Shown here in pieces: positions 12,475 through 37,114 of a stretch of DNA of 49,849 nucleotides. Each line of letters starts with the position of its first letter. Within the stretch, counting starts at the first letter, position 1. Position numbers and translations under genes: made by a program. Source of the DNA: Candidatus Caenarcanales bacterium (GTDB lineage: Bacteria > Cyanobacteriota > Vampirovibrionia > LMEP-6097); assembly GCA_947459525.1 (NCBI GenBank), contig CANHDW010000003.1, positions 1-49,849 of the forward strand, read 5' to 3'. The notes under the pieces were generated by a model that saw only the letters and a list, made by a program, of their open reading frames with translations, was not told the origin of the DNA and did not search any database.

Positions 12475-12477
12475 TAT

Positions 12478-13317
12478 TTAGATAGTCTTAGTGCTGAGTT
12501 CAGAATTTTGATTTTTAAATAGAGAGATTATATTTTCTGTAAAAGCTTTAAGGTACTTATTATTTAGTTCTTCTGCTGTAATATTATCATCAAACTCAAT
12601 GGTAATGCAGTCCAGTCCTTTGTCTTTAGAGTAAGAACCAAGTGAGCCAGGAGTTGGATAGCCGATATCTTCGGTGAATTCCAGTTCTGTATCGCGTGCA
12701 AGTTTTATCGCAAAGTCTTTATGAGTACCTAGCCCATCATAGTTGACTTGTGGGGGATTTGGGAAGCGAATGAAATGGTTAGTATGAAAACTAATAATTA
12801 AATCAAAATCAAGACCCTCTATTAATTTAGTTAAAAGCTGAGTTTCGATTTCACTTGCAGGAAAGTCACCAGGGTAATAGGGGTTTTTTTCACCATCTAT
12901 TCTAAATTTTGCACTCTGCCAGTTTTGGCTTGGCATATTACGATTTAAATCTACGTCATTATGGTTATGACGAGTAAAATTTTTCAGGCCATGTGGATTT
13001 AATGCGGGAATTGCGATGATTTTAAAATCTTTAAGTTGATCTATATTGAGCTCTAGATCATTAATTTGGAGAGCAGTTTCTTCGACTGAATGTGCTGTTA
13101 GTCCAAGTAATTGAGATATTGACAATATGCCTATTGATCTTTTGTTGAGATCAGTATTTATAGAGCTATGCACTACTCCATTTTCTGAATTTTCATCAGT
13201 CTCATCTATAGATAGTATTTGGGTAAGTAGACTGTTCAAAAAGGCAGAACTTTGAGGCTCTACTCCGTGCGTTCCTGCTACTAATAATAGCCTCATTGGC
13301 AACGGTTCCCTTATCAA
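12478..13317 (-). CDS. mpaA: M14 zinc carboxypeptidase, murein peptide amidase MpaA-like
   Basis: HGVE, NPHG, DLNRN, SFH, GYPTPGSLG and TIE motifs. Confidence 0.8.
   Translation of the reverse strand: MIREPLPMRLLLVAGTHGVEPQSSAFLNSLLTQILSIDETDENSENGVVHSSINTDLNKRSIGILSISQLLGLTAHSVEETALQINDLELNIDQLKDFKIIAIPALNPHGLKNFTRHNHNDVDLNRNMPSQNWQSAKFRIDGEKNPYYPGDFPASEIETQLLTKLIEGLDFDLIISFHTNHFIRFPNPPQVNYDGLGTHKDFAIKLARDTELEFTEDIGYPTPGSLGSYSKDKGLDCITIEFDDNITAEELNNKYLKAFTENIISLFKNQNSELSTKTI
13161..13205 (-). repeat. in-frame MITE end remnant in mpaA (ETDENSENGVVHSS)
   Basis: CACTACTCCATTTTCTGAATTTTCATC resembles the element end CACAACTCCATTTTCTGCGTTTTTGTC. Confidence 0.6.
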
Positions 13318-13326
13318 CTCTCGCTC

Positions 13327-13653
13327 CTATGCTTTAATAGGAAAAATGTTTTGTAGTTTCATGGCAAGTCCCATGTCGCCCTTAACTTTTAGCTTACCTT
13401 GCATAAAAGCCATTTGACTATTGAGTCTGCCTTCGCGAATAGAGATCCAGTCTTTATCGCTCATTGCTATTTCTACACTAGGATTTGGCACCGCAGTGGA
13501 ACTGAAATCACATTCCTTATCTTTTATTGAAAAAACCCATGTTCCGCCCTCTGGGCCAGAAATATTAAATTGATAAGTCGCAGCGATTCCTGCTGCTCCC
13601 TCTGGGTTGAAATGCTTGTGCATTTCTTCGAAAACTTCACCAATAGTCGCCAT
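13327..13653 (-). CDS. SCP2 sterol-binding domain protein
   Basis: AFMQGKLKVKGDMGLAMKL signature. Confidence 0.92.
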   Translation of the reverse strand: MATIGEVFEEMHKHFNPEGAAGIAATYQFNISGPEGGTWVFSIKDKECDFSSTAVPNPSVEIAMSDKDWISIREGRLNSQMAFMQGKLKVKGDMGLAMKLQNIFPIKA

Positions 13654-13772
13654 GATTTTTATCTTATCACTGAATTTTCAAAAGATTGCAAACCTAGTAA
13701 GTTAATTGCTAGAATAGTTAGCCTGCTTAATTGTCTTGACTTGGGACTAATAATGTAGATGGTGAAAATAAT

Positions 13773-14558
13773 ATGTCAATAGAAATAAAAGAAGCAAATA
13801 GCGTGAATGATACAGTAACAGAAGCTGAAAAATTGGAGAAGCTTGAGGCGAAGAAAGCTGAAGCTAAAGAATTATTAAGAGCGCTGGTAGCAGCTGGTTC
13901 ACATTTAGGACACCCTACGCGCAAGAAGAATCCTAAGATGGATGCCTATATTCACTCTGCGAAGAATGGCTTACACGTTATTGATGTTTCTATAACTGTC
14001 TCTAATATGATGAGGGCCGCAGAATTTTTAAAAAAACAAGTGAAACTTGATAGAAATATCCTACTAGTAGGTACTTCTAAGCAGGCTTCCGAGTTAGTTA
14101 AGCTTGAGGCTGAGAGAGCTGGTATTTTCTTTATTAACCAAAGATGGTTAGGTGGATTGATTACTAACTTTGACATAATTAGATCTAGATTAAATACTCT
14201 TAGAGAGCTTGAGCACTCTAGAGATACTGGTGGTTTTAAAGGTCTTGGCAAAAAGGAAATCGCATCTATTAATAGACAGATTCTAAAACTTAATAGATCG
14301 TTAGGTGGTCTTAAGAAGATGAAGGGTAGACCAGATGTGGTTATGGTTCTTGATCAGAAGAAAGATGCATTAGCTATAACTGAGTCTAAGAAACAAGGTA
14401 ATATTACTATAATTTCTTTAGTGGATACAGATGGTGATCCGACTGGTATAGATTTTCCTATCCCTGCTAATGATGACTCTATTAGTTCACTTAGCTTCTT
14501 GCTTAAGTATTTTATGGATGTGATTTTGGCGGCTAGGCAAAAAATATCTAAGAGATAA
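13773..14558 (+). CDS. rpsB: 30S ribosomal protein S2
   Basis: GSHLGH, RWLGGLITNF and IPANDDS motifs; adjacent to tsf. Confidence 0.97.
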   Translation: MSIEIKEANSVNDTVTEAEKLEKLEAKKAEAKELLRALVAAGSHLGHPTRKKNPKMDAYIHSAKNGLHVIDVSITVSNMMRAAEFLKKQVKLDRNILLVGTSKQASELVKLEAERAGIFFINQRWLGGLITNFDIIRSRLNTLRELEHSRDTGGFKGLGKKEIASINRQILKLNRSLGGLKKMKGRPDVVMVLDQKKDALAITESKKQGNITIISLVDTDGDPTGIDFPIPANDDSISSLSFLLKYFMDVILAARQKISKR

Positions 14559-14598
14559 GCTATCATATTTTTCGAGAGATAAAGGAATTTAAAAGAAG

Positions 14599-15486
14599 AT
14601 GAGTTTTGGAGCAAAAGACGTAGCTGAATTAAGGGCGATGACAGGTGTTGGCATGATGAAGTGCAAAGAGGCCTTGACCGAATCTAATGGAAATATAGAA
14701 GAAGCTGTTAATTATTTACGTAAAAAAGGTATAGCTGGTGCTGCTAAGAAGATAGGAAACATCGCTGCTGAAGGGATTATCGCTGTTGCGATAGCGGATG
14801 ATAAAAAATCTGCGACTCTTATTGAACTTAATTGCCAGACTGATTTCGTTGCGAAGAATGATGATTTTATTAACTTTGCTAAGAAAATTGCGAAGATAGC
14901 TTTAGATACGAAGTCTAATAATTTGGAAGAAGTTTTAGCTGTGAATTTCGAAGGAAAGCCTCTGAGCGAGACTATTCTTGAGCAGATTTCTAAAATTGGT
15001 GAAAAGATAGAGCTTAGAAGATTAGCTTATTTAAAGACTGATGGCGTGGTAGCTCCATATATACACCCTGTTGGTTATAAAATTGGTGCTTTAGTTGCTT
15101 TATCTACTGCTGCTGCGACTGAAGATAAGGCCTTAGATATTGCTATGCATGTGGCTGCTAGCAATCCAGCTCCAGAATTTAAAACCAGGGCTGATATTTC
15201 TGCTGAGGTAGTTGCTGCAGAGAAGAATATAGAGATGCAGAAAGATGATCTTAAAGGGAAACCAGATGAGATTAAAGAGAAGATTGTTGAGGGTAGAATC
15301 AGTAAGCTACTTGCTGTGAAGACTTTAGATGAACAGCCGTTTATTAAAAATCCAGACCAGAAGGTTAAAGATTATTTAGGCGGAGCGATTATTGAGGCTT
15401 TTGTTTTACTTAAAGTTGGTGAAGGTATACAGAAAAAAGAAGATAACTTCGCAGATGAAGTCGCTTCTATGATGGCTGGATCTTAA
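14599..15486 (+). CDS. tsf: elongation factor Ts
   Basis: LRAMTGVGMMKCKEAL and ELNCQTDFVAKN motifs. Confidence 0.97.
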   Translation: MSFGAKDVAELRAMTGVGMMKCKEALTESNGNIEEAVNYLRKKGIAGAAKKIGNIAAEGIIAVAIADDKKSATLIELNCQTDFVAKNDDFINFAKKIAKIALDTKSNNLEEVLAVNFEGKPLSETILEQISKIGEKIELRRLAYLKTDGVVAPYIHPVGYKIGALVALSTAAATEDKALDIAMHVAASNPAPEFKTRADISAEVVAAEKNIEMQKDDLKGKPDEIKEKIVEGRISKLLAVKTLDEQPFIKNPDQKVKDYLGGAIIEAFVLLKVGEGIQKKEDNFADEVASMMAGS

Positions 15487-15503
15487 CTTTAAACTCTGGT
15501 ATT

Positions 15504-15589
15504 GCCGCAGTGGCGGAATCGGTAGACGCGCTTGACTCAAAATCAAGTTCCCTTAAAGAGTGTCGGTTCGAGTCCGACCTGCGGTACCA
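15504..15589 (+). tRNA. tRNA-Leu(CAA)
   Basis: GCCGCAG/CTGCGGT acceptor stem, CTTGA-CTCAAAA-TCAAG anticodon arm, long variable arm, CCA. Confidence 0.95.
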
Positions 15590-15617
15590 CTAAATTAAAA
15601 AAGGGATTAATATATCT

Positions 15618-16922
15618 ATGTCACAAGATCAACACAGGTTAAAGTCCCTAGATGCGCTGAAGACTTACGACTCAGGTTATCAGGACATTTTTTATAAAAG
15701 AAGCCAAAAAGATAGGTTTAACAAATATTTAAGTAGATATCTTCAGGGTCAATCTCTTGGCCTGCATGATGAATTAACTAACAGACCAGACTTAATGGAC
15801 TCTTTAGATATTAAGAGTTTGTTTATTTTAAATGCTTTGACCTATGAAATTCATTTAGAGGAAAAGAATCTCTTTGCAATAAAAAGAAATGAATTTATAG
15901 CTAACTCTCTTGTAAAGAAGCTTATAGATATTTATACGAAGATTTATAAATATGTTCAGTTAGATGAGGAATTAGATAAAAGATTTAAGAATATAGATTT
16001 TTATACTATTGCCAACTTATTACCAACTGTAATCGTTTACTATACTGATTTTATATTAGTGAACCAGCTTGAAGAGCTTTATCCTAAAGCATTTGAAATA
16101 TTATCTAATAAAAATTTATTTGATAATTTAAAAGAAGAATCTTTAAAGCCAGAGAGGTTGCGTTTACTTGCTCTATATCATAGACGTAATAAGGATTTGG
16201 GGAAAGCTGATGATGTGATGCTAGAGTATAGAGAGCAGTATCTCCCGGACTTAACCAAGAAAGTTAATTTAAAGAAATTACCAAACAAGCATAGTTACCC
16301 ACCTTCGGAAGTGGTTAATAATCTAGGTGTCCTTTATCAGGAGATCAAAGATATTCAGACAGAGGTCTGTGACCTAACTGGGGTTAATGAAGACACTTGT
16401 TTCTATTATAGTTGTTCAGAATGCTGTCATAATGACTATCCTGTACTCTATTATTCTGAATATAAATATTTGGTCCAAAAACTCAAAGAAGAAGGACGTG
16501 ATATCGAAATTTATAAAGCCAAGGCGAGAGATATTCAAAGCCAGCATGTAGAAAAGTATGGCTATGAGCTAAAGATCACGAATAAACATAGACCAACTAA
16601 AGAAGATGCGAATCCTAATGATTTTAAATATAGTTGTCCTTTTTTAGGTGAATCGGGTGGCTGTTCGGTACACCAGATTCGTCCGATGATGTGCAGGGCC
16701 TACGGTCTTTCTACTTCTGACAACAGAAATGTTCAGTCTTGTAATTATTATCTAAAACAGCATCAGTACAATTCCAATTATGAGAACATTCGTTATGTTT
16801 ATGACGTCAGGCCTTATGTAGCTTTAATTGAGGCTAGCGATGCTTACCAAATCAAGCAGGATCTTAATGAGAGTAAAAATCTCTGTGGTACTTTTATTGC
16901 TTGGCTGTGTAGTGATTATTAA
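15618..16922 (+). CDS. YkgJ-family cysteine-cluster protein with a long helical N-terminal region
   Basis: CxxxCSECC, CPFL, CSVHQIRPMMCRAYG. Confidence 0.8.
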   Translation: MSQDQHRLKSLDALKTYDSGYQDIFYKRSQKDRFNKYLSRYLQGQSLGLHDELTNRPDLMDSLDIKSLFILNALTYEIHLEEKNLFAIKRNEFIANSLVKKLIDIYTKIYKYVQLDEELDKRFKNIDFYTIANLLPTVIVYYTDFILVNQLEELYPKAFEILSNKNLFDNLKEESLKPERLRLLALYHRRNKDLGKADDVMLEYREQYLPDLTKKVNLKKLPNKHSYPPSEVVNNLGVLYQEIKDIQTEVCDLTGVNEDTCFYYSCSECCHNDYPVLYYSEYKYLVQKLKEEGRDIEIYKAKARDIQSQHVEKYGYELKITNKHRPTKEDANPNDFKYSCPFLGESGGCSVHQIRPMMCRAYGLSTSDNRNVQSCNYYLKQHQYNSNYENIRYVYDVRPYVALIEASDAYQIKQDLNESKNLCGTFIAWLCSDY

Positions 16923-16937
16923 AAGCTCGCTCAGGAA

Positions 16938-17127
16938 GAGACCACTGCACAACGTGCAGTTTCAAGGCTGAGGAGGACGAATGACCGCAGTGTAATTTCC
17001 AGCGATGCCGAGTATGCGACACGAGTGTCGTACGCGAGCAAGCGGAAATACAAGCTCCGCTTACTACAAGTACATGAGGATCATGAGGACGACAAAAACG
17101 CAGAAAATGGAGTTGTGCAGTGGTCTC
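16938..17127 (+). mobile_element. 190-bp MITE-like palindromic element, intergenic copy
   Basis: perfect 16-bp TIR GAGACCACTGCACAAC...GTTGTGCAGTGGTCTC; AGGAA on both sides; second copy at 18538-18727. Confidence 0.9.
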
Positions 17128-18940
17128 AGGAAGTGTATTCTGCATTAATCTTCACATAGTCATAACTTAAATCATTCCCAAGAAAATGTGCAGAATTTAG
17201 AGCTTTGTTTTCGATAGTCGATTTATTTTTAGTTAAACTTATAACTATCTCTACGTGCCTTGCTTGTTTCAATCGCTTAGCGAGTCTATCTAAATCCTCG
17301 CCAAAAATCTGTGCAGAAGCATTTTTAAAAACACAGCTATCTAATAGATTTACTTCAATTAAACTCATGTCTAAACCTTCTAGTAGAGCTTCTTCCCGTG
17401 CGAAAGCTGCAACTATGCGCCCCCAATTGGGGTCATTACCAAAGATGGCGGTTTTAACCAACATTGAGTTAATAATATTTCTGCCGATTTTTTGAAGATT
17501 TAACTGACTGATAGGTAAGTTTTCTAGCTTGAGGTCTATGATTTTGGTTAAACCTTCACCATCTGCGATAATCTGATAGCAGAGTCCTTTGCAGACTTCT
17601 TCAAGAGATGCTTTGAATTCTTCTTTGCTGATTTCTTCTCCAGTAAAATTATTTAATAGGAGAACCATATCATTAGTACTGGTATCACCGTCTACGCTGA
17701 TGTTATTAAAAGTAGTGCTGACGATTTCACTTACAGTTTCCTGCATAAATTCCGTGGCTTTTTCATTATTAAGACCTAAAATTTTTACATCTGTAATAAT
17801 AAAGCCAAGCATGGTCGCCATGTTTGGAGCTATCATGCCAGAACCTTTACAGATGCCAAGGAATCGCTGTTTCTGATCCTGACTGATCTTTGGAACAGTA
17901 TCTGTGGTCATAATCGCTCTGGCGAAATCATAGACAGCTTCATAAGATTTAGAATTTTTCTTTTCTTTTATTTTTTCTGTGAAAACCTTTTTAGCGTGAC
18001 TCAGGTCAAGCTTACGTCCTATAACCCCCGTACTCGCCGACAGTACTTTTGGACACTGCTTGCAGTCTCCAATTTCTGCGATATTTTCAATAAAATCTTC
18101 AAGCAGTTTCCTTAAATCATTATCTGCTTTAACCCCTTCTTCTCCAGTGCAGCAGTTAGCATTACCAGAATTGGCGATAAGACCATGGACGGTTTTAGAT
18201 TTTAATTCTATGTTATGTTCTACGCATACAGCTTTCATCGCATTTTTTGTAAAAGTACCAGCCCAAGAACAGGGTTTTTCTGAAAATAAAACTGCCATAT
18301 CTAAATTATTTATTTTAGAGACAGCTTTAATTCCCGAGTGAAAACCCGTGAGGGAGAAGTATTTAGGTAGTGATGGTATGTAGGCTTTAGCTAAAAGAGT
18401 GTAGCCTTCTGCACAGTAGTAAAGGGCTAGAGGCATTAAAGCATAACTGTAAGCTTGTATGCCCTGTGCAAGTAATAAGGATTTCTCTTCTTCAGAGGGT
18501 ATTTCACCGTCGGCAAGAGCAGCTACTTTAATTCCTAGGCACTGCTGCTGAACTCCAATTTCTGCGTTTTCGTCGTCCTCATGATCCTCATGTACGTTAA
18601 GTAAGCGGAGCTTGTATTTCCGCTTGCTCGCATACGACACTGGTGTCGCATCCTCGGCATCGCTGGAAATTACATTGCGGTCATTCGTCCTCCTCAGCCT
18701 TGAACTTGCACGTTCGGCAGCAGTGCCCTCTAAGGACTGCTGCCGAACTCCAAGTTCTGCGTCTTCGTCGTTAATCTGGGATGTATACAATTCAGTAACA
18801 GGGATAAAACCTATATTCCTAGGACTAGAACCTGTTAAATTCAGATGATCTACTATCCTCAGTTCTTTTCCAGCAAGCTCTTCTGTAAGTGGAATTACAG
18901 GGATAAATATTTCTTTGATTTTCATCTTTCCATTAGCCAT
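17126..18940 (-). CDS. argJ: ornithine acetyltransferase ArgJ with an N-terminal extension containing MITE insertions
   Basis: NSGNAN, STGVIG, IMTTD, KGSGMIAPNMATML, DTSTND and DPNWGR motifs. Confidence 0.92.
   Translation of the reverse strand: MANGKMKIKEIFIPVIPLTEELAGKELRIVDHLNLTGSSPRNIGFIPVTELYTSQINDEDAELGVRQQSLEGTAAERASSRLRRTNDRNVISSDAEDATPVSYASKRKYKLRLLNVHEDHEDDENAEIGVQQQCLGIKVAALADGEIPSEEEKSLLLAQGIQAYSYALMPLALYYCAEGYTLLAKAYIPSLPKYFSLTGFHSGIKAVSKINNLDMAVLFSEKPCSWAGTFTKNAMKAVCVEHNIELKSKTVHGLIANSGNANCCTGEEGVKADNDLRKLLEDFIENIAEIGDCKQCPKVLSASTGVIGRKLDLSHAKKVFTEKIKEKKNSKSYEAVYDFARAIMTTDTVPKISQDQKQRFLGICKGSGMIAPNMATMLGFIITDVKILGLNNEKATEFMQETVSEIVSTTFNNISVDGDTSTNDMVLLLNNFTGEEISKEEFKASLEEVCKGLCYQIIADGEGLTKIIDLKLENLPISQLNLQKIGRNIINSMLVKTAIFGNDPNWGRIVAAFAREEALLEGLDMSLIEVNLLDSCVFKNASAQIFGEDLDRLAKRLKQARHVEIVISLTKNKSTIENKALNSAHFLGNDLSYDYVKINAEYTS
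18051..18088 (-). repeat. in-frame MITE end remnant in the ArgJ core (ENIAEIGDCKQCP)
   Basis: GGACACTGCTTGCAGTCTCCAATTTCTGCG versus GGCACTGCTGCTGAACTCCAATTTCTGCG. Confidence 0.7.
18538..18727 (-). mobile_element. 190-bp MITE-like element read in frame within argJ
   Basis: TIR GGCACTGCTGCYGAAC (15/16 complementary); interior differs from the intergenic copy at 11 of 158 positions by manual count. Confidence 0.9.
18733..18770 (-). repeat. adjacent MITE end remnant in argJ (DEDAELGVRQQS)
   Basis: AGGACTGCTGCCGAACTCCAAGTTCTGCGTCTTCGTCG. Confidence 0.85.
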
Positions 18941-19944
18941 AGTGGTTGAAATACGGAAGAAGCTGTACCATTTTCACCAGTTAAAAGATTTTTTATAGAA
19001 TCTTTCTGTGACATCTTCATGCCGAAGAGACCCTCTAGGGAAGAAAATTGACCACCATCCCAAGTCTCTCTGAATGCTAGGCTGTCAGCACCTCTTACTT
19101 TATATTTAGTTTTTAATAAATCTTTCAGAATAACTTTAGAGTCTTCTAATGTTCCAAGATGATCGACTAGACCGACTTCTTTTGCTTGAGAGCCCGTATA
19201 AATTATCCCTCTTGCGATAATCTGAAGCTTATCTATTTCGATACCCCTACCAGCATGAATATCATTTAAAAATTGATCATAACTGTTTTCTAGGAGCTTA
19301 TTTAAGATACTTATTTCTTCAGGTATTAATTCTCTTTGACTAGAGCCTATATCCTTAAATTTACCTGCTTTAAATGTCTGGTCTTTAATACCAAGCCTAT
19401 CAAAAAAACCTTTAAGATTCACGCCCTGACTGATAACCCCGATGCTACCAGTAAGAGTACCGGGGTTCGCGACGATGGAATCAGCGGCACTCGCTATGTA
19501 ATAGCAACCACTGCCACATATGTCTCCCATAGAGACTAATACTGGTTTTTTAGCTTCACGAAGTTTTTTTACTAATTGATAAATTTCTTGACTAGCTGCG
19601 ACCGTTCCACCAGGACTATTCATTCTTAAAAGAACTGCTTTCGCTTTTTTATCATCTAAGGCTTTTTGTAATTCTTGTTTACAGCTAATGGCATCGGTAG
19701 CAGAGCTAAAAGGACTACTTTTCGCAAATCCATCATAAATAACACCTTCAAGCCCAATGATTGGAATGTAATCTTGATAATTACCGATTTGAGATAATAG
19801 TTCCTTCTTAACTTCATTTCCAGAATGCATCTGCCCTTGTCCGTCTTTTAAAAGAACCATACCAAGGACCGAAGATAATAAACAGAGAGCTACCAATGTG
19901 ATAACTACTATTATCTCTCTTTTTTCTTGCTTAATTAAACTCAT
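18922..19944 (-). CDS. sppA: signal peptide peptidase SppA (36K type)
   Basis: NSPGG, SMGDICGSGCYY, GSIGV and KAGKFKD motifs; N-terminal TM. Confidence 0.92.
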   Translation of the reverse strand: MSLIKQEKREIIVVITLVALCLLSSVLGMVLLKDGQGQMHSGNEVKKELLSQIGNYQDYIPIIGLEGVIYDGFAKSSPFSSATDAISCKQELQKALDDKKAKAVLLRMNSPGGTVAASQEIYQLVKKLREAKKPVLVSMGDICGSGCYYIASAADSIVANPGTLTGSIGVISQGVNLKGFFDRLGIKDQTFKAGKFKDIGSSQRELIPEEISILNKLLENSYDQFLNDIHAGRGIEIDKLQIIARGIIYTGSQAKEVGLVDHLGTLEDSKVILKDLLKTKYKVRGADSLAFRETWDGGQFSSLEGLFGMKMSQKDSIKNLLTGENGTASSVFQPLWLMER

Positions 19945-20027
19945 ATCAATTAATTGTAACGCTATTTTAATTTTTAAAGCTCTATATTGGCGGCAGTTCT
20001 ATGAATTTTGCTACAATAGGCTAGCAG

Positions 20028-21044: not shown

Positions 21045-21102
21045 AAGCTTTGTTCTTTTTCAACAAACTATTGAGACTGAGACATGTCATAATTTCTTAT
21101 GT

Positions 21103-22176: not shown

Positions 22177-22230
22177 GGCTGCTTGTTGCTAGGATCGACT
22201 TTTGATGAATTTTTTATCTGCTGCGTTTAA

Positions 22231-26119: not shown

Positions 26120-26137
26120 CCTAGTAAAATAAAGTTT

Positions 26138-27864: not shown

Positions 27865-29579
27865 GGCTCGTCTATTTCTTTAGTCGCCTCAAAATTAATA
27901 ATATCGGATCTAGTCATTATACCGATTAGCTTTTTAGGATTATGTCTATCGACGATTAATAATCTGCCTATATTATGCTCATGTAAGCTAATAATCGCTT
28001 GGTGCAGATTATCATCTTCGGTAAGTATGATAAGTGATTTTGACATTACCTGAGAGACTTTAGTATTTCTTTTGAGATTTTCTTCTAGAGCCTGTTTCAG
28101 GTCATTACGGGTGACTATGCCGACTAAATTCTGCTCAGCATCTACTACAGGTAATGCACCGTGTGTGGTTCTTTGAAATACTCGATTTAGAGAACCAAGT
28201 GAAATATTCTCCTCCACGCATTCTGGGTCTAGGGCCATAGCCTCTTTAACACTAAACTGCTGTAAATAAGAGGGACTGGTGTATTGATTTAGCTTTATAC
28301 CTTGGCGGGAGAGCAGGTTTTCGTATATTCCACCTAGATGTAATTTTTCAGAGGTTACATTTGCGATAATACAGGAAAACATTAAAGGCAGCACTAAATC
28401 ATAGTTACCAGTTAATTCAAAAAGCATAACTATGCTTGTGATGGGCGCTCTAGAAATAGCTGTAAAAAAAGCCCCCATCCCCACAAAAGCGAAAGTCGAA
28501 GGATTTAAATCAAGAAAAGGAAATAATGAATTTAAACTATTTCCGAACATGGCTCCAAGTAAGGCTCCTAGAATTAATGAAGGTGCAAATATACCACCAG
28601 GAACGCCACTACCACAAGCTACTAAGGTGAGAATATATTTAAACAAGAATATTAATGGGATCATCCACCAAATATAAGCTTGCGCCAGCGTGCCTTCTAG
28701 AGTAGCGTGTCCTTCACCTATAGCTTCAGGTAACCATAGGGCGACTATGCCTGTTAAAAAACCAGCTATGCCACCATGCGCCCAAGCTGGAATGAAACTT
28801 AATTTCTGTTGATAGAAATTTAAGGATTTTAAGATGGATTTTTGGAAGCTGATGCCAATAACACCACAGACTATGCCTAATATTATATAAAGAGGAATTG
28901 AGCTGAGGCTCATTCCAGAACTGGATTGAAAATGAAAAGCAAAGAAATCGCCATAGAGTAATCTACAGGTGATCGCAGCAGAGACCGTGCCGACTATGGC
29001 GGGTCCAAGAGAAGTGCTGGAAAAATCTTTATCTAATTCTTCGATAATAAAAAGTACGCCAGCAATGGGAGTATTAAAAGCAGCAGCAAGACCAGCTCCA
29101 GCACCGCTCGCCAAGGCTCTTTTCTGATGTTTACTATTCATTAGCCTTGCGATTTTACCGCCTAGACCCGCACCTATATGAATGGTCGGTCCCTCACGTC
29201 CTAGTGATAAACCTGAAGCGATGCCTACTATAGCTCCGAAGAATTTAACGATTACAGTTCTTAGTCTAATCGTGATGTTTGGGTTATTTAGAGCGTGCTT
29301 AACTTGTGGAATGCCACTGCCGCCAGCGTCTTTAGCGTATTTCTGAGTAATAAATCCAGCGAATAAACCTCCAGAGGTACAAATGATAATCGGGTAGAGC
29401 CATTCATACCAGTATTCACGATGATAGAGGTTATAGTAAAAAAGGTGACTTAATTTTTCAGTAAGAACTCTGAAGGCTACTGCTATACAACCAACAACGA
29501 CTCCTATTAAAGCTGCTCTGAGCAGGATCTGAGTCTTGGTGTCAAAGCTTTTTAAAAAAAGATATTTAAGACGTCGCAA
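27861..29579 (-). CDS. clcA: ClC H+/Cl- antiporter with a CBS pair
   Basis: GSGIP, GREGP and GGIFAP motifs; C-terminal CBS domains. Confidence 0.9.
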   Translation of the reverse strand: MRRLKYLFLKSFDTKTQILLRAALIGVVVGCIAVAFRVLTEKLSHLFYYNLYHREYWYEWLYPIIICTSGGLFAGFITQKYAKDAGGSGIPQVKHALNNPNITIRLRTVIVKFFGAIVGIASGLSLGREGPTIHIGAGLGGKIARLMNSKHQKRALASGAGAGLAAAFNTPIAGVLFIIEELDKDFSSTSLGPAIVGTVSAAITCRLLYGDFFAFHFQSSSGMSLSSIPLYIILGIVCGVIGISFQKSILKSLNFYQQKLSFIPAWAHGGIAGFLTGIVALWLPEAIGEGHATLEGTLAQAYIWWMIPLIFLFKYILTLVACGSGVPGGIFAPSLILGALLGAMFGNSLNSLFPFLDLNPSTFAFVGMGAFFTAISRAPITSIVMLFELTGNYDLVLPLMFSCIIANVTSEKLHLGGIYENLLSRQGIKLNQYTSPSYLQQFSVKEAMALDPECVEENISLGSLNRVFQRTTHGALPVVDAEQNLVGIVTRNDLKQALEENLKRNTKVSQVMSKSLIILTEDDNLHQAIISLHEHNIGRLLIVDRHNPKKLIGIMTRSDIINFEATKEIDEP

Positions 29580-29587
29580 TTGAGCTT

Positions 29588-30934
29588 TTATTCTTCTTGT
29601 GTTTTAAATTTTATCAGAATAGGTGTACCGATAAAGCCGAAATACTCTCGAAGTTTTTTCTCCATAAATCTTACGAAGGTAGGAGGGATTAATTCAGGAT
29701 AGTTCGCAAATAGCAGAAACTCTGGTGGTTCTGTAGTAATCTGTGTCGCATATTTAATCTTAATCGCTTTTTGTTTTACTATCGGTGGCGGCTGTAAAGA
29801 GAGGATATCTCTTAGAACTTTATTAAGTAGATTGGTTTCTATACGACGTTTATGCTGAGCACTGACTTCTATGGCTCTAGTCCATATCTTGTCAGTTCTA
29901 GTACCTTCTAGGGCTGATATAAATTCTATTGGTGCATAGTCGATGAATCTTAACTTAAATAAAAGCTCTTCTTTAAAGGCTTTGAGTTTAGTCTGATCAT
30001 TCTTAATTTCAGGATCTACGATGTCCCATTTATTCATAGCGATTACACAAGCCCTGCCTTTACTCTGTATCAGCGCTGCGATTTTCTGATCTTGCTCGCT
30101 TACTATATCGTCTTGAGTGCTATCTAGAATTAAAATAGCTACATCACAGCGAGCTATGCTGTGAGTCGTTCTTATCGTCGAGTATCTTTCTATTTCTTCT
30201 TGAACTTTAGACTTTCTTCTGAGTCCAGCTGTATCTATTAACTCAAATTTATGCCCATGCCTATTTAGAAAAATATTTATGGAATCCCGTGTAGTGCCAC
30301 TAACATCACTCACGATGGATCTCTCTTCACCGATAAGTTTATTATAGAGACTGGATTTCCCTACATTAGGCTTACCAATAAAAGCGATCTTAATAGACTC
30401 TTCTGGCTTTTCATCACTAGCTTTTAGTCCGACACCATAATTTTCAATAATATCGGTTAGCATATTATTTAATCCTACTGAACCGTGTAAGGCACTGAAG
30501 CCATAAACCCTGTCGAAGCCTAGCTTATAGAAATCATAAACAAGACTTTCTCTTTCTACGCTATCGACTTTATTGACAGCGACATAGACTCTATCAAAAA
30601 ATTTCTCTCTTAAGATGCTGCATATCCTCTGGTCTTCTGTCGTCATACCAGTATTAACGTCGAGTAAAAATACTATCGCATCTGAATTTTCCATGGCGAT
30701 TACCGCTTGGCGGTAAATATCGTCAGAAAAAGGATCTTGTTTATCAAAAGTTATTCCACCAGTGTCTAGGATAGTAAAAGGGGTGTCTTCCCATTCAAAA
30801 GTAACTTCCTTGCGATCTCGCGTAATACCAGCTTTTTCGCCTACTATGCATACTTGTCTACCAGCTAATCTATTTACTAGAGTGCTTTTGCCGACATTAG
30901 GTCTGCCTATCAGTGAGATGCGAATGCTTTTCAT
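29588..30934 (-). CDS. der: ribosome biogenesis GTPase Der
   Basis: two GxPNVGKS / DTxG / NKxD GTPase domains. Confidence 0.96.
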   Translation of the reverse strand: MKSIRISLIGRPNVGKSTLVNRLAGRQVCIVGEKAGITRDRKEVTFEWEDTPFTILDTGGITFDKQDPFSDDIYRQAVIAMENSDAIVFLLDVNTGMTTEDQRICSILREKFFDRVYVAVNKVDSVERESLVYDFYKLGFDRVYGFSALHGSVGLNNMLTDIIENYGVGLKASDEKPEESIKIAFIGKPNVGKSSLYNKLIGEERSIVSDVSGTTRDSINIFLNRHGHKFELIDTAGLRRKSKVQEEIERYSTIRTTHSIARCDVAILILDSTQDDIVSEQDQKIAALIQSKGRACVIAMNKWDIVDPEIKNDQTKLKAFKEELLFKLRFIDYAPIEFISALEGTRTDKIWTRAIEVSAQHKRRIETNLLNKVLRDILSLQPPPIVKQKAIKIKYATQITTEPPEFLLFANYPELIPPTFVRFMEKKLREYFGFIGTPILIKFKTQEE

Positions 30935-32267
30935 GTTTTGATTTTAGGATTAGGCTTAAGTGATCTAATATATGGTCAGCACTTAAGGATTTATCCTGCT
31001 TAATTAATTTTATAATTTCGAGTTCATTAGGATCATCTAATTTAGGATAAATTATATTAATTTCGCTTTCTTTGCTATTTATAGCATCAACGCCATTTGC
31101 GATTATCATATCCAGATTTTTTTCTATTAATTTTTTTCGAGCATTTTCTATTAGGTCTTCAGATTCGAGAGAAAAGCCTACTGTTATTTGGAATGGGCTT
31201 TTTAGGGAAGATAAATGCTTGATTATGTCGGGATTTTCTTTGAGTTCTAGGGTGACGGTATCTGCGGTATTATTATCTTTTTTAATTTTCTTCGATAAAT
31301 GTTTCATCGGACTGTAATCTGATACGGCTGCTGCCATGATTACAGCATCTATCGATTCATTAAAGTTTCCTTCCATGGCTTTAAGCATTTCTTCTGATGA
31401 GCTAACTTTTAAAAGTAATAAATTGGGATGATCTAGTAGAGCGGATTTGATAGGATCTTTTCTATAATTTACTGTAGATACAAGTATGACATTAGCTCCA
31501 CGATAGAGGGCTTCTTGTGCTAGTGCAAATCCCATTTCTCCAGAGCTGTCGTTAGAAATGAATCTAACGGGATCTAAATATTCTTTAGTTCCACCAGCAC
31601 TGATAAGTATATTGTTGTCTAGCAAGTTCTGGGGTTTTCCTTTAGAGTTGAATTGTAATTTAGAATACTTAGACAATATCTTTTTGCTTAGTATTTTATT
31701 TACTGCATTGAGGATAGAGTCTAAATCTGCTAACCTACCTATTCCACTTGTTTTACAAGCCAAAGCTCCTGCGCTAGGTTGAATTACTGAATAAGCATAG
31801 TTATCTCTTAGCTTTTTGATATTATCTTGAACTCCTAGGTGTAGCCACATATTGGTATTCATGGCTGGAGCTATTACTACAGGGGCTTTAGTCGCTAGGA
31901 TTATATCGTAGATTAAATCATCACTAATAGCATGAGCGAGTTTGCCGATGCAGTTAGCAGTCGCTGGAGCTATCAATATGAGATCCGCTATTTGAGCTAA
32001 ATGTATATGGTCTATGTAAGAGTTATTGAGAAAGGGATTTACGGTTGATTCTTCGACTGTATGTTTAGAGTCTTTAGTAAATACTCTGTTGCAGCTTATG
32101 ACTTCTAAGCTTAGTGCACTGACGAAGCTTGCAGCTGAACTGCTTAAAACCACATAGACATTAGCTCCTAGTTTTTTTAACTGGGAAACTAATTCGACAG
32201 ACTTATAACTAGCTATGCCGCCAGTAACCCCAAGAACTATAGTCTTATTTTCAAGAGTTAGTTCCAC
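30897..32267 (-). CDS. coaBC: bifunctional CoaBC
   Basis: GVTGGIASYK, APATAN, APAMN, DPVRFISNDSSG and AAAVSDY motifs. Confidence 0.95.
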   Translation of the reverse strand: MELTLENKTIVLGVTGGIASYKSVELVSQLKKLGANVYVVLSSSAASFVSALSLEVISCNRVFTKDSKHTVEESTVNPFLNNSYIDHIHLAQIADLILIAPATANCIGKLAHAISDDLIYDIILATKAPVVIAPAMNTNMWLHLGVQDNIKKLRDNYAYSVIQPSAGALACKTSGIGRLADLDSILNAVNKILSKKILSKYSKLQFNSKGKPQNLLDNNILISAGGTKEYLDPVRFISNDSSGEMGFALAQEALYRGANVILVSTVNYRKDPIKSALLDHPNLLLLKVSSSEEMLKAMEGNFNESIDAVIMAAAVSDYSPMKHLSKKIKKDNNTADTVTLELKENPDIIKHLSSLKSPFQITVGFSLESEDLIENARKKLIEKNLDMIIANGVDAINSKESEINIIYPKLDDPNELEIIKLIKQDKSLSADHILDHLSLILKSKHEKHSHLTDRQT

Positions 32268-32272
32268 TTGAG

Positions 32273-32476
32273 TTAGTAACGATTTTCTACTCTGTGTAGG
32301 TAAACTTCTTTAATCGCTTTAAGAATGGGTGGGTAAGGACTAGGTTCTTCTTTATCCTGCTCTTTAATTCTTTTAGCTACACCAGCGATTTCTCTAGTCA
32401 TCTCATAGATATTCTCTTCGTAATCTATAATCTCACTTAAGAACTTATTAGTAGAATCACTCTGATCATTAGGCAT
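32273..32476 (-). CDS. rpoZ: probable RNA polymerase omega subunit
   Basis: N.Y..T..IA..AKR...P.LKAIKE pattern; directly upstream of coaBC. Confidence 0.7.
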   Translation of the reverse strand: MPNDQSDSTNKFLSEIIDYEENIYEMTREIAGVAKRIKEQDKEEPSPYPPILKAIKEVYLHRVENRY

Positions 32477-32487
32477 AAGTCAAGTAA

Positions 32488-33150
32488 TTATACCACAGCT
32501 TGAGCTAAAGACTGTGTAATGCTTTTATAAACTTCGCCTGGGCTGAGTTCCGCATCTAATTCAATAAATTTACCTGCTTTATAATTATTATAGAATTGAG
32601 TTAAAGGTAAACCAGTTTCCACTTCATAAGTGCTGAGTCTTTTTTCTATAATTTCAGGATTATCATCTTTTCTTTGGTATAGATCTGAGCCACATAAATC
32701 ACAGCGGCCTTCTACTTTAGGTGGAGTGAATAGGATGTGAAACATACCTTTACAGCTCGGATCTTGAGTTTTAGAACACATTCTTCTGCCACTCAGTCTT
32801 TCTACAAGAATTTCTTTACGGACGTTTAAAGCGAATATATAATCGAGTGGGCTAACCTCGGCTAAGAATTTAGCTTGCTCTAATGTTCTTGGGTAACCAT
32901 CTAACAGAAATCTATTAGTGGCTTTTAATTTACTTTTAACTATTTCATTGACGATGTCGTCAGAGACTAGTTCTCCACGCTCAACTATAGCTTTAACTTC
33001 TTTCCCTAAAGCAGATTCACTCTTGATTTCAGTTCTGATAAGATCACCAGTGCTGATGTGCTCAAGTTTAAATTCCTCTGCAAGCCGAGCTGCTTGCGTT
33101 CCCTTTCCTGCACCCGCTGGACCGATAAATAAGATTCTTAGGTTTTCCAT
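32488..33150 (-). CDS. adk: adenylate kinase with a zinc LID
   Basis: GPAGAGKGTQA, HISTGD, LDGYPR and C..C LID motifs. Confidence 0.96.
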   Translation of the reverse strand: MENLRILFIGPAGAGKGTQAARLAEEFKLEHISTGDLIRTEIKSESALGKEVKAIVERGELVSDDIVNEIVKSKLKATNRFLLDGYPRTLEQAKFLAEVSPLDYIFALNVRKEILVERLSGRRMCSKTQDPSCKGMFHILFTPPKVEGRCDLCGSDLYQRKDDNPEIIEKRLSTYEVETGLPLTQFYNNYKAGKFIELDAELSPGEVYKSITQSLAQAVV

Positions 33151-33170
33151 CTATGGAGAAATTTTAACAT

Positions 33171-33203
33171 GGGCGTGTAGCGAAACTCCAATTTCTGCGT
33201 TTT
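33171..33203 (-). repeat. intergenic MITE end remnant between queA and adk
   Basis: GGGCGTGTAGCGAAACTCCAATTTCTGCGTTTT; last 20 nt identical to the argJ copy. Confidence 0.8.
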
Positions 33204-34386
33204 AAAGCAAAAGGCAGCAGTCACCATAACTAAAGAATCGATATTTTTCTTCAACGGCTATCTGGTAAAGGGTTTTACATTCCTCTATGCCAATTAATGT
33301 GCTTACTAATAGTAGTAAAGTGGATTTAGGTAGATGAAAATTAGTGAGAAGCCCATCTATAATTTTAAATTTAAAATTTCCAGGATAAATATATAAATCA
33401 GTCTCACCACGTAATTTACCAGTAATAGCTATGCTTTCAAGACAGCGTAAGCTAGTAGTGCCGATAGCGATTACCCTCCTCCCTTCGGCTTTGGCTGACT
33501 GAATTTTATCCCAGTTTTCAGAGATAATTTCATAAGTCTCGAAATGCATCTTATGGTCTTTTACTTCGCTTACGCTGACAGGCTTAAAGGTTCCTATGCC
33601 TACATCTAGATTTAAGTCTATAAATTCAACTCCTTTTCTTGTAAGTGCTTGAATAATTTCTTCGGTGAAATGCAATCCAGCAGTAGGCGCTGCAATGCTG
33701 CTACCTAGAGAGTCTTGTTTAGAATAGACTGTCTGATAGCGTTCTTTATCACTATCTTCAGCACTCCTTTGTAGATAAGGTGGTATCGGCATAGTGCCGT
33801 GATTCGTGATTATGTTTATAAATTGCTCATAGCTTTTGAATTCAACTATCATCATCCCATCTTCATTCGAAGATCGCTGCACAACTCCATTTTCTGTGTT
33901 TCCCTTGAAAATAATTATTTCTTCGGATGAGCCACTTATGATATAAGATCGAGGGTTAGTTTTAATTTTTTTCCCAGGCTTAGCTAGAGCCGTCCAGCAA
34001 TATTTTTTATCATGGGACTGCTCGAAAATTCTAAATTCTGCATTTCCATAATCTCCATCATCCTCATGATCCGACAATTCTTTAACTAAAAGTATTTCGA
34101 TAGCTTTGTTTTCAGGCTTCTCTTTATCTATCACAAAAAATCTCGCTGCTAGCACTCTAGTGACATTCCTCACTAAAATATCACCGGCTTTTAGAATGGA
34201 GCATATATCTTTAAAGGATTTATGTTCGATATTTTTATTAAGTTCTTGTGAAATAGTGCCTTGGAGATTTGGTGCTTCCTGGATTTCTCGCTTATAATAG
34301 AGCAAGCGAGAATTATCCCTTTTATCTAGTGGATACTTAGCGACTAATTCCTCTGGTAGCTCAAAATCAAAATCGTCAATTAACAT
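33202..34386 (-). CDS. queA: S-adenosylmethionine:tRNA ribosyltransferase-isomerase
   Basis: FDFELPEEL, PIPPY, AAPTAGLHF, TNFHLPKSTL and YRFFSYGD motifs. Confidence 0.96.
   Translation of the reverse strand: MLIDDFDFELPEELVAKYPLDKRDNSRLLYYKREIQEAPNLQGTISQELNKNIEHKSFKDICSILKAGDILVRNVTRVLAARFFVIDKEKPENKAIEILLVKELSDHEDDGDYGNAEFRIFEQSHDKKYCWTALAKPGKKIKTNPRSYIISGSSEEIIIFKGNTENGVVQRSSNEDGMMIVEFKSYEQFINIITNHGTMPIPPYLQRSAEDSDKERYQTVYSKQDSLGSSIAAPTAGLHFTEEIIQALTRKGVEFIDLNLDVGIGTFKPVSVSEVKDHKMHFETYEIISENWDKIQSAKAEGRRVIAIGTTSLRCLESIAITGKLRGETDLYIYPGNFKFKIIDGLLTNFHLPKSTLLLLVSTLIGIEECKTLYQIAVEEKYRFFSYGDCCLLL
33870..33901 (-). repeat. in-frame MITE end remnant in queA (NTENGVVQRSS)
   Basis: AAGATCGCTGCACAACTCCATTTTCTGTGTTT versus GAGACCACTGCACAACTCCATTTTCTGCGTTT. 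Confidence 0.85.
34014..34072 (-). repeat. in-frame MITE end remnant in queA (DHEDDGDYGNAEFRIFEQS)
   Basis: shares TCCTCATGATCC, TTCTGC and a GGACTGCT terminus with the element. Confidence 0.7.
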
Positions 34387-34395
34387 AGTTCCTCA

Positions 34396-35508
34396 ATGAT
34401 TAAACTGAGTATAATAATCACCACATATAATAGAGCAAATTTGCTTGAGCAATTGTTAAATGATATTTTAGAGCAGCATGTAACTTTAGCTCCTGAAGAG
34501 CAGTCTATTGAATTAATTCTTGTTGATAATAATTCTGGAGATGACACTAAAGCTGTTATTTATAAATTTATTGAAGCGAATACTTTAAGCGTGAAGTATG
34601 TCTTTGAACCTATACAAGGTATTGCCGCTGCACGCAATACTGGAATAGAGAAGTCGCAAGGTAATCTGCTGGCCTTTCTGCATGATGATATTTCTTTGGA
34701 TGAGGACTGGCTGAGAGAAGCTTATAAGTTAGCTTCTAATTGCTTGCAGCATGAAATAGGTGTCTATGGTGGGCGTTCTATACCTCTTTGGGAGGATGCT
34801 TTACCTGAATGGCTTGATTTAGAACCACCTTATGGTGTTGACCAAGATGTCTTCAGAGGACATAGTTATGGTGATGAAGAGAGATTTTATCCTTTCAATA
34901 CAGAGTTTGGTAAGGCGGATTATCCATCTGGCATAAATGTTTTTATCCGCAGAGAAATTTTTATTAACTGTGGAATTTTCAGAGTGGACTTAGGAGCTAA
35001 TGCTGAAGGTGGTCTTGGCTCACATGAGGATTATGAATTTTTTGATTACCTTGCTGCCATAAACATTCCAATGTTGTATGTGCCACAGTGTATAGTCTTT
35101 CACCCCATTAAACCAGAGCATCTAGACGAGCATTATGTAAGGACTAGTTATTTTAAAACAGGTAGAAGTCTTTATTGGATAGCTCATACTGACAGGCTTA
35201 AACGCTCTGCCCCAGATTTATTCCAAATTAATAGTGGAGATAGATTGTTTTATCCAGAGTTTACTAAAATTAAGATAGCTAGAATTCCTCTTTATCTTCA
35301 TTTAAAGATATTTTATGTAGCTTGTGAATTGCTCTACGTCCTAGTTTTATTTGATAAGAAAAAGTTACATTATGTTACTTTTAAGCTTTGTAGGACTTTA
35401 GGCGAGATGAATGCAGCTGTTCTTTTGGCACAAAGAGAGAAAAATAAGAAGTTTAGTTTTAAAGACAGGATTATAAAAAAGAAAGTGATCGAATTTAGAG
35501 AAGTGTGA
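34396..35508 (+). CDS. glycosyltransferase family 2
   Basis: SIIITTYNR, VDNNSGD, ARNTG, HDD and ED motifs. Confidence 0.9.
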   Translation: MIKLSIIITTYNRANLLEQLLNDILEQHVTLAPEEQSIELILVDNNSGDDTKAVIYKFIEANTLSVKYVFEPIQGIAAARNTGIEKSQGNLLAFLHDDISLDEDWLREAYKLASNCLQHEIGVYGGRSIPLWEDALPEWLDLEPPYGVDQDVFRGHSYGDEERFYPFNTEFGKADYPSGINVFIRREIFINCGIFRVDLGANAEGGLGSHEDYEFFDYLAAINIPMLYVPQCIVFHPIKPEHLDEHYVRTSYFKTGRSLYWIAHTDRLKRSAPDLFQINSGDRLFYPEFTKIKIARIPLYLHLKIFYVACELLYVLVLFDKKKLHYVTFKLCRTLGEMNAAVLLAQREKNKKFSFKDRIIKKKVIEFREV

Positions 35509-37114
35509 GAATCTTGGTTAGTGCTTTATAGTGTACGAGGTTCGCACCAGCTAGATTAATGTCAGCGATTTTACTATCGAAATCACATTCAACATGAACA
35601 GTATTAGGAAAGTGTTTTTTAAAATTTAAAATAAGAGACAGCTGTGCAACTCCATCTTTAATAAGATTTTCTAATTTCGGATCGCTCCAGCACTGGAAAG
35701 TTAATATCAAATATTTTAAAGTACTCTTTGAGATTTCGTTTGATTCTTTTTCTAGGTGGTCTAATATTAAATCAATCAGAGACTCAGTTCCCGCGGAAAA
35801 TTTTATTAATTTGGCTTCTGGAAATACTTTCATGATCACTTCGCTCTCTAGCTTAGGGTGTTCAAAAACAAGAATATAATCAGGCTTAAGTGGGAGCAAA
35901 CTGGACAACTCAGCATTTAAACCATTTTGAGCTTTGTATTTTATTTGAATGCTGTCTTGAACTATGTTTGACATCTCTTGTATTAATTTTTCTCTATGGC
36001 TAGCGCCTAAAGTGTGTTTTATAGTACTGTTCTTATCTAAGTTAGAACTGTGTTGGCTTTCTAACACTGTTATTTTTTTAGTTTTAAGCTGATTTTTAGT
36101 TAGTTTAATTTTTTCGATGGAATTTTCGATACGCTCACGCAAAGATTTACTGAAATGGCAGGTAGGGCTAGATCTCTCTATCTCTAAGGCTTCGTCTAGA
36201 TTAGTGTTCCAGATAATTAGATCATTGCCAGCCTTTATCATTAATTCACAGATTCTTTTATAATCCCCAAATGCATTCAGAGCTTTCATCGTAATTTCAT
36301 CAGTTACACACAGACCTTTAAACTTAAGTTCTTGCTGAAGAAGACCTTCTACGAAAAAAGGATTAATGCTTGCTGGTAGTTTTTCTAATATTTCCTGCGT
36401 AACTTTATTGTGATGAGAAGTATTTCCTAAGAGTTTTTTTTGAATGCTCTCTGGAAGCTTATAAATAGCGTGGGCCGTCATGACCATGTCTATTTCAGAG
36501 TTTATCGCTGCACGAAAAGGCTCTAGATGATTATTAAAGGATGATTCTTCGCTTAGATCTATGTAAGGTAGAGAATAGTGAGAATCTTTACTAGAGTCGC
36601 CATGTCCAGGAAAGTGTTTGGCACAGTTAAGCAAGGGGTATTTTTTTAATTCATTGATGATAGTGGTAGCCTGCTTGGAGACTAGCTTGGCATCGTTCCC
36701 AAGGCTTCTCGTGCCGATAATGGGATTAAGAGGGTTAGTATTTAAATCTAAGCAGGGAGCGAAAACTAGATTAAAGCCCAAATCAATTAATTCAGAAGCA
36801 AAGAGCTGAGTGTGTGAATTTAAATAATCAGGATTCTTTCTGCTAGCAGTACCTAGAGCATAGAGACTTGGCAAGCTTGCTGAAACTTTTCTAAGGCGCT
36901 CTACCTTACCGCCTTCTTGATCGACGCTAATTAAAATATCTTCGCCTAATAAATCTTTTAAATCGGCGATGAGTTTTTTTAACTGAGCGGTTTCTTCTAT
37001 ATTGGTATCAAAAAGAATTAATCCAGCTGGCTTTAACTCTAAAAGTTTACTTACGGTTTCTTTGTCTAAAGTGGCTCCCTTAAAGCCACAGATGAAGAGA
37101 TTGCTGAGTTGCAT
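35495..37114 (-). CDS. nagZ: beta-N-acetylhexosaminidase (GH3, NagZ-like)
   Basis: VDQEGGKV, APCLD, KHFPGHG..DSH, MTAH and TD..MKA motifs. Confidence 0.88.
   Translation of the reverse strand: MQLSNLFICGFKGATLDKETVSKLLELKPAGLILFDTNIEETAQLKKLIADLKDLLGEDILISVDQEGGKVERLRKVSASLPSLYALGTASRKNPDYLNSHTQLFASELIDLGFNLVFAPCLDLNTNPLNPIIGTRSLGNDAKLVSKQATTIINELKKYPLLNCAKHFPGHGDSSKDSHYSLPYIDLSEESSFNNHLEPFRAAINSEIDMVMTAHAIYKLPESIQKKLLGNTSHHNKVTQEILEKLPASINPFFVEGLLQQELKFKGLCVTDEITMKALNAFGDYKRICELMIKAGNDLIIWNTNLDEALEIERSSPTCHFSKSLRERIENSIEKIKLTKNQLKTKKITVLESQHSSNLDKNSTIKHTLGASHREKLIQEMSNIVQDSIQIKYKAQNGLNAELSSLLPLKPDYILVFEHPKLESEVIMKVFPEAKLIKFSAGTESLIDLILDHLEKESNEISKSTLKYLILTFQCWSDPKLENLIKDGVAQLSLILNFKKHFPNTVHVECDFDSKIADINLAGANLVHYKALTKILTLL
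35635..35659 (-). repeat. in-frame MITE TIR remnant in nagZ (KDGVAQLS)
   Basis: GAGACAGCTGTGCAACTCCAT versus GAGACCACTGCACAACTCCAT. Confidence 0.5.

Follow-up and report, generated by a model that had tools for sequence, protein, structure and literature searches.

The 49,849-nt window analysed here is contig C3 of the metagenome-assembled genome (MAG) of an uncultured freshwater member of the Vampirovibrionia (Melainabacteria); this source genome (G000) comprises 1.02 Mb in 48 contigs, with 35.7% G+C, and is 54.5% complete. Four open reading frames (ORFs) on the minus strand of the window encode an M14 zinc carboxypeptidase (MpaA-like; 12478-13317; Pfam Peptidase_M14, E 3.1e-10), ArgJ with an N-terminal domain resembling purine nucleoside phosphorylase (PNP) (17126-18940; Pfam ArgJ at residues 198-604), QueA (33202-34386; Pfam Queuosine_synth, E 2.8e-109; PDB 1vky/1yy3 by sequence), and a glycoside hydrolase family 3 (GH3) protein (NagZ-like; 35495-37114; Pfam Glyco_hydro_3, E 2.3e-58). 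Each of these ORFs contains short in-frame segments that resemble the right end (RE) of a palindromic mobile element, a miniature inverted-repeat transposable element (MITE), which is also present in the window as whole copies.

We searched the window alone with nhmmer using an RE profile built from 90 copies, all outside the window; chance-level matches to this profile begin at E 2.6. Within the M14 peptidase, residues 41-52 (DENSENGVVHSS; peptide 13162-13197) belong to an RE remnant at 13162-13205 (nhmmer 13170-13205, E 3.1e-3). ArgJ has two sites. At site 1, residues 58-69 (DEDAELGVRQQS; peptide 18734-18769) are encoded by an RE copy at 18734-18771 (nhmmer 18736-18771, E 8.5e-7 in the window and 1.6e-5 genome-wide), which stands directly upstream of a long full element at 18541-18721 (E 5.5e-58); the latter lies in frame in the ArgJ N-terminal domain, with its acidic frame open. 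At site 2, a solo RE within the ArgJ domain (18053-18088; nhmmer 18055-18080, E 3.3e-3) encodes residues 285-296 (ENIAEIGDCKQC). QueA carries two remnants, one at residues 163-173 (NTENGVVQRSS; 33868-33901; nhmmer 33876-33901, E 2.5e-4; peptide 33868-33900), which matches an intergenic copy of the element at 90% over 31 nt, and one at residues 106-124 (DHEDDGDYGNAEFRIFEQS; 34015-34072; nhmmer 34017-34072, E 6.4e-4; peptide 34015-34071). The remnant in NagZ (residues 486-493, KDGVAQLS; 35636-35659) is more decayed (nhmmer 35639-35657, E 1.2). An earlier, sequence-only reading had placed six peptides at these positions and described them as the same end of one element in the same orientation and frame; based on the profile and the host coordinates, all six lie on the minus strand like their host ORFs, in host orientation and in the D-E-N-A-E-I-G-V codon phase. 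That reading also implied significant nhmmer scores, which we obtained for five of the six remnants (E 8.5e-7 to 3.3e-3). By itself the nagZ remnant falls short of significance, and we accepted it because the orthologues in two sister genomes (G004 and G006) carry a clear RE at the same NagZ site. A further RE remnant, absent from the earlier list, lies at the queA stop codon (33177-33203, minus strand; E 1.4e-7). There, the TAA stop of queA replaces the GAA codon of the element in the acidic frame, and the sequence after the stop would read NAEIGVSLHA.

A 182-position profile of the whole element, obtained by iterated nhmmer, yielded 133-135 matches in the 1.02-Mb genome (E<=1e-3), which merged into 7 long full copies, 26 short full copies, 63 solo REs, 9 solo left ends (LEs), and 4 other fragments. 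The element measures ~110-190 nt; the long form is ~190 nt, and the short form, which is without profile positions ~58-122, is ~121 nt. An alignment of 25 short copies shows hardly any variation in the core; the 14-bp terminal arms have subfamily-specific sequences whose complementarity is kept by compensatory changes. Each position of the terminal stem is paired in 18-25 of the 25 copies; for example, arm positions 10 and 113 form a pair in 23 of the 25, as CG in 10 copies and as GC in 12. By eye, 5-bp direct repeats (e.g. AAGAT, AAGGT, AATTT, TTAAA, and ATCAA) border at least 7 of 32 full copies. Given this 5-bp target duplication and the unit length, an insertion adds 42 or 65 codons, so the host frame is never shifted. 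The long intergenic copy next to argJ folds as single-stranded DNA (-41.7 kcal/mol, z -5.3), and the open frames of the element encode only the repeat peptide. No Rfam family matches the element at gathering thresholds, and a search to E<=10 returned only a chance snoRNA match (E 7.3); a CUGAGGA...GAAA core recalls the hammerhead ribozyme by eye only, and we rejected this candidate as unsupported by Rfam.

The genus is represented in the collection by seven genomes, namely the source genome and G001-G006, of which G003 is distant and the others form, with the source genome, a close set of six. Matches to the element peptide number in the dozens in five of the six other genomes and 3 in G003; we found none in other genera beyond ArgJ itself. 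Small, present in many copies, and lacking its own transposase gene, with terminal inverted repeats and a target-site duplication, the element is a palindromic, non-autonomous MITE confined to the genus. Among the 40 candidates scored per genome in G001 and G002, we noticed no LE and RE pair separated by a few hundred to a few thousand bases; this was not a systematic search for an autonomous partner. We also considered a reduced endosymbiont genome as the setting and ruled it out, as G000 is only 54.5% complete and its relatives have genomes of 1.8-2.3 Mb.

In addition to the copy inside argJ, the window contains a long full element in the intergenic region adjoining the argJ stop codon (16940-17129 or, delimited slightly differently, 16939-17126; plus strand), flanked by the direct repeat CAGGAAG. 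This copy and the argJ copy (18541-18721, minus strand) are 91% complementary over 176 nt. At the matching place in G001 the element has the short form, with both halves 100% identical; long and short forms thus alternate at one site, as they also do at ArgJ site 1 (long in G000, short in G006). In this region (window 16929-17133), the argJ stop codon (TGA) is itself made up of the last base of the intergenic element and the flanking repeat CAGGAAG. Elsewhere in G000, we noticed an RE subfamily with GCGGGC instead of GACGAC, which reads HEAGENAE and is represented by 12 solo REs (e.g. C1 67892, C2 33296, C4 31001, and C8 37338) and no full copies. The copy at C1 67892 retains both arms around ~30 nt of core, and the subfamily could represent either an earlier wave or a mini-element in its own right.

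We translated natural copies of the element in six frames by coordinates. Among 32 whole copies, 27 are stop-free in the acidic plus-strand frame, which reads ...RTSSRLRRTNDRSV...HEDHEDDENAEIGVxQQ, and 26 are stop-free in one minus-strand frame; each of the other four frames is open in no more than 2 of the 32. Only the acidic frame was found inside genes for whole copies: all 12 full copies within ORFs of at least 150 codons lie in host orientation and in this frame. For solo REs in such ORFs the count is 34 of 38 (binomial p ~5e-20 against an expectation of 1/5). In the remaining four cases, the RE is close to the 5' edge of a stop-to-stop ORF, and in the three of these ORFs that were scanned it precedes the first Pfam domain; the four are therefore probably outside the real coding region. 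In a more lax scan (>=5 bits, >=40 codons inside long ORFs), there were 89 matches in the acidic frame versus 11 in the other five frames, which serve as an internal control. The earlier expectation of many more remnants genome-wide is thus borne out by the 63 solo REs and the 89 lax matches. The proposed bias toward the acidic frame also stands, based on the solo REs, but it is partly inherited, as a whole element offers just two stop-free frames out of six. Altogether, 47 ORFs of at least 150 codons carry strict matches, and 36 of the 40 that were scanned have Pfam families (E<=1e-5). These are mostly housekeeping families, for example tRNA synthetase domains (ArgRS and another class I enzyme), MutL, MnmE, a GidA-family (MnmG-like) protein, TatC, LexA, and TruA.

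If the segments are insertions, they should be missing from orthologues without the element, as the sequence-only reading had proposed; in alignments of QueA, ArgJ, the M14 peptidase, and NagZ, they correspond to gaps in other genera. Both QueA segments stand opposite gaps in five outgroup sequences, and the most distant relative within the clade (L005, 74% identical) is without the repeat signature; at the 106-124 site, relatives read LSDHEDDGNAEIGVWDQS. ArgJ sites 1 and 2 are both empty in four other genera, and the NagZ insert is absent from G003 and other genera. The 12-residue segment of the M14 peptidase is found in six of six close genomes and is absent from G003 and the other genera aligned. 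Across the six close genomes, remnant columns are 53-64% identical versus 89-93% for core columns; the leftovers in loops are fast-evolving.

The predicted structure of QueA (19 sequences; predicted template modelling score [pTM] 0.80) matches 1vky (E 2e-26) and has four segments with a predicted local distance difference test (pLDDT) score below 50, two of which, at residues 107-126 and 164-174, are the remnants at 106-124 and 163-173. Each of these loops lies between two beta strands in the predicted model. Another of the clade-specific insertions in QueA, the third, occupies residues ~34-50 (EIQEAPNLQGTISQELN; window 34237-34287), with pLDDT below 50 at 36-43; it has no similarity to the element. 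In the AlphaFold2 model of ArgJ (10 sequences; pTM 0.71), pLDDT falls below 50 at residues 55-132 and 291-294, where the insertions lie. Based on these predicted models for QueA and ArgJ, and on alignment gaps for MpaA and NagZ, the remnants are located in loops compatible with the fold.

The ArgJ N-terminal domain that hosts site 1 measures ~120 residues without the insert, is present in other genera, and resembles the C-terminal half of PNP. The PNP gene of the same genome (G000:C9:2562-3497, L080) has its own RE followed by a long element in the loop equivalent to that of ArgJ, with other flanks (an ATCAA duplication). The different flanks in ArgJ (window 18341-18940, minus strand) and PNP indicate that two paralogous loops were invaded separately.

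The sister genomes carry different alleles at several of these sites. At ArgJ site 2, G002, G004, G005, and G006 have a composite in which an RE is followed, after 6 nt, by a short full element, whereas G000 and G001 have a solo RE, which makes the site shorter by exactly 126 nt, or 42 codons. GTGTC terminates both this solo RE and the RE whose pairing partner is the left arm (GACAC) of the full copy; the composites' upstream RE terminates in CAGTCC instead. The arm type of the solo RE therefore favours loss in G000 and G001 over a site that was never filled. Four kinds of allele occur at ArgJ site 1. Relative to the solo RE, G000 is 195 nt longer (RE plus long element), G006 is 126 nt longer (RE plus short element), and G001 and G004 are 45 nt longer, with an internal deletion that kept both the left and the right arm; in G002 and G005 there is a single RE that resembles the first RE in its 5' part and the second at its 3' end. 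In NagZ, G004 reads ENAENGAVQGS and G006 reads ENAENGVVQES, and their DNA is a 33-nt RE between two copies of CTTATT; G000, G001, and G002 are 9 nt shorter (33 to 24 nt), and G005 is empty, with a single CTTATT. Between QueA loci, the remnants vary by in-frame indels of 24 and 9 nt, with one locus (L003) 24 nt longer at the 163-173 remnant and another (L001) 24 nt shorter at the 106-124 remnant. Orthologous sites in ArgJ, NagZ, and QueA thus differ in multiples of three, which supports the earlier suggestion of insertion followed by in-frame trimming.

Retention is also one-sided. The 63 solo REs of the genome compare with 9 solo LEs, and the RE:LE ratio is 38:2 in long ORFs and 23:6 where the covering ORF is shorter than 100 codons. 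At least 4 of these 23 non-coding solo REs appear by eye to be internally deleted copies with a left arm, and a search for left arms within 30 nt upstream found 2 of the 23; we kept the counts as computed. Copies often stand as composites of an RE and a full element or as head-to-tail pairs, and among the 32 full copies there are 7 composites with a solo RE before the full copy and none with a solo LE after it. The RE arms inside composites are 89% identical (5 of 7 testable) versus 63% for random RE pairs (resampling p ~1e-4). We also considered, and rejected, the idea that base pairing guides the left arm to an RE already in place: at C12 the left arm fits the RE of its own copy better, and the REs at C2 32187/32242 are of different subfamilies.

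Taken together, these observations make it probable that the six segments are decayed REs of an in-frame MITE, trimmed by collapse and purifying selection to short acidic loops. The element would enter genes without a frame shift, in the manner of the Rickettsia palindromic elements (RPEs), and would survive only in its hydrophilic open frame. Recombination or slippage between two direct RE copies would then collapse the insertion; because such a collapse always leaves an RE behind, it accounts for the RE at both ArgJ sites. Purifying selection would remove out-of-frame and stop-containing products and probably also the basic peptide of the left half, and later in-frame cuts (indels of 9-24 nt) may reduce the leftovers to short acidic loops. 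The net outcome would be that housekeeping enzymes continually gain surface loops that are short, acidic, and under little constraint. In the formation of solo long terminal repeats (LTRs), recombination between two direct repeats removes the body of an element and leaves one repeat of the same kind. The analogy is one of process only, since the direct repeats here are two MITE right ends of ~30-40 nt and there is no evidence of a retroelement.

Several points weigh against this interpretation. Collapse between REs leaves the origin of the first RE of a composite unexplained, as it does the excess of solo REs outside genes (23 vs 6), so RE survival is only partly explained; the difference in RE:LE ratio between coding and non-coding regions is marginal (Fisher p 0.06). 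Polarity at ArgJ site 2 and at NagZ rests on sequence signatures. The protein tree of the close genomes (1151 columns) places G006 basally with bootstraps of 45-85, and the unrooted shape (G000,G001), G002, (G004,G005), G006 is consistent; however, the DNA trees (per locus and concatenated; 8072 columns) place the root differently, G003 being too distant, and we therefore argued polarity from the arm signatures. An insertion beside an older solo RE is still conceivable. At NagZ, the 6-nt direct repeat around the 33-nt RE and the empty G005 site are as compatible with a truncated copy having inserted as with trimming. The quality of the ArgJ model is modest (mean pLDDT 68, 10 sequences), the ORFs are stop-to-stop frames and not gene predictions, the source MAG is 54.5% complete, and assemblies break at element copies. 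Finally, we infer the translation of the segments. Six RNA runs contain part of 12400-19000, and three RNA runs and one DNA run on 16900-36899 gave contigs stopping at or multi-mapping to repeats, with no RNA contig spanning the elements; the "skips 69" joints in the run contigs match short-form copies from elsewhere.

It is possible, if unlikely, that most solo REs were never whole at their site and were inserted 5'-truncated or as an RE only, whether by early termination from the RE end or through a tandem or circular intermediate, so that the same-end pattern would reflect the insertion mechanism. The NagZ alleles just described fit this explanation, as do the starts of solo REs, which vary (model positions 106-151) whereas their 3' ends are fixed; two solos in G000 (C9 14478 and C4 3903) are bordered by 6-nt direct repeats. 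The GCGGGC subfamily, with 12 solos and no full copy in G000, points the same way, although full copies may be missing from a 54%-complete assembly. The 7-to-0 composite count and the relatedness of the RE arms within composites would likewise be expected. However, direct repeats around solo REs were not enriched, with 10 of 61 bordered by 5-mers versus 9.5 expected and 3 by 6-mers versus 2.3, in a test that is weak as match starts are fuzzy. Moreover, the ArgJ site 1 allele of G001 and G004 retains the left arm and is a plain deletion product, and the solo REs at both ArgJ sites bear the arm type of the full copy's own RE.

Somewhat less likely is the related idea that a circular or tandem single-stranded intermediate serves as the source of new copies, which insert as units longer than one unit length and redundant at their ends, not by plain cut-and-paste. 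Such an intermediate would yield an invariant core with a covarying stem, head-to-tail arrays, and one-sided composites of a partial RE and a full element with related REs. If it exists, solo REs would arise as solo LTRs do, and this would be a so far undescribed way for a bacterial repeat to spread, seeding loops in a single frame.

We regard it as very improbable that the element is cut from the mRNA via its paired arms, leaving full insertions out of the protein and only short remnants without a paired arm to be translated. An RNA system of this kind, excising inverted-repeat transposons by SOS splicing, is reported to exist in animals (PMC12779559, PMC11870413), and the element does fold stably, with a nearly invariant core and a terminal stem kept by compensatory changes. 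Yet all 12 intragenic full copies lie in one of the two stop-free frames and the units are multiples of three, which would be needless if the element were removed before translation, and no Rfam family matches it. There is similarly little to recommend the view that the acidic loops are retained as useful, for example for solubility or interaction, and are adaptive modules instead of tolerated debris. The near-exclusive use of the acidic frame, despite a second stop-free frame, and the occupation of the same loop in two PNP-like paralogues would favour it; the low identity of remnant columns relative to the core, the differences in presence and length among close genomes, and the modelling of the segments at pLDDT below 50 do not. 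That the peptides are chance acidic low-complexity sequence unrelated to the element has next to no probability and is refuted, for five of the six by their significance against a window-free profile and for nagZ (E 1.2 alone) by orthologues; all six share strand and phase, and sister genomes carry longer, unmistakable copies at orthologous sites.

Returning to the interpretation that the segments are decayed ends of an in-frame MITE, the element, compared by features and not by sequence, can be described as an analogue in Vampirovibrionia of the RPEs, which the title of Ogata et al. 2002 reportedly calls "unique but recurrent". A review that summarises the RPE work of Ogata et al. (2000, 2002) gives 44 RPE copies for R. 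conorii and places close to half of these within ORFs (PMC10969869). By the description in that summary, RPEs and the present element are alike in being short palindromic repeats with an open frame, found in frame in unrelated housekeeping genes in surface regions thought to tolerate them, and proposed as a source of new protein sequence (PMC10969869). The element differs from RPEs in belonging to another phylum, in its clear 5-bp target duplication and its unit of exactly 42 or 65 codons, and in its invariant core with covarying arms. It is also denser, with 89 in-frame RE-bearing segments in 1.02 Mb compared with the 44 RPE copies given for R. conorii in the same summary (PMC10969869). Further differences are the preferential retention of one end and the occurrence of composite, deleted, and solo alleles at the same sites. 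Intragenic ERIC sequences, QMITE1 of Coxiella burnetii, and MITEs of Anabaena PCC 7120 have been reported with ORFs or in-frame fusions, as far as the review describes them (PMC10969869). Like the present element, other bacterial MITEs are non-autonomous, bounded by inverted repeats, and at times fused in frame with host ORFs; whereas in-frame fusion appears as occasional in the review's account (PMC10969869), it is the rule here inside genes.

A full-text literature search found no paper on an element of this type from Melainabacteria or Vampirovibrionia. Palindromic repeats that code in frame have so far been treated as a peculiarity of Rickettsia, and the same phenomenon occurs here, at higher density, in an unrelated, uncultured freshwater lineage. 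This analysis contributes the decayed remnants of a single end, the one-sided retention of that end, and the series of alleles across sister genomes. With sites caught as composites, whole elements, internally deleted copies, solo ends, and a 24-nt stub, the passage from selfish DNA to protein loop can be traced per site, and ArgJ, QueA, NagZ, and the PNP pair offer concrete loci for testing tolerance and function. Those who annotate Vampirovibrionia genomes should be aware of the insertions, which lengthen and break up alignments and interrupt MAG assemblies at repeats.

Three other repeats occur in the window. Two tandem copies of a 280-nt unit, 95% identical and 297 nt apart, are located at 8002-8578, and a ~100-nt unit is present in two copies, 72-78% identical and ~220 nt apart, at 47284-47605. 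Directly upstream of the nagZ start, at 37146-37262, there is an AT-rich cluster of direct and inverted repeats.

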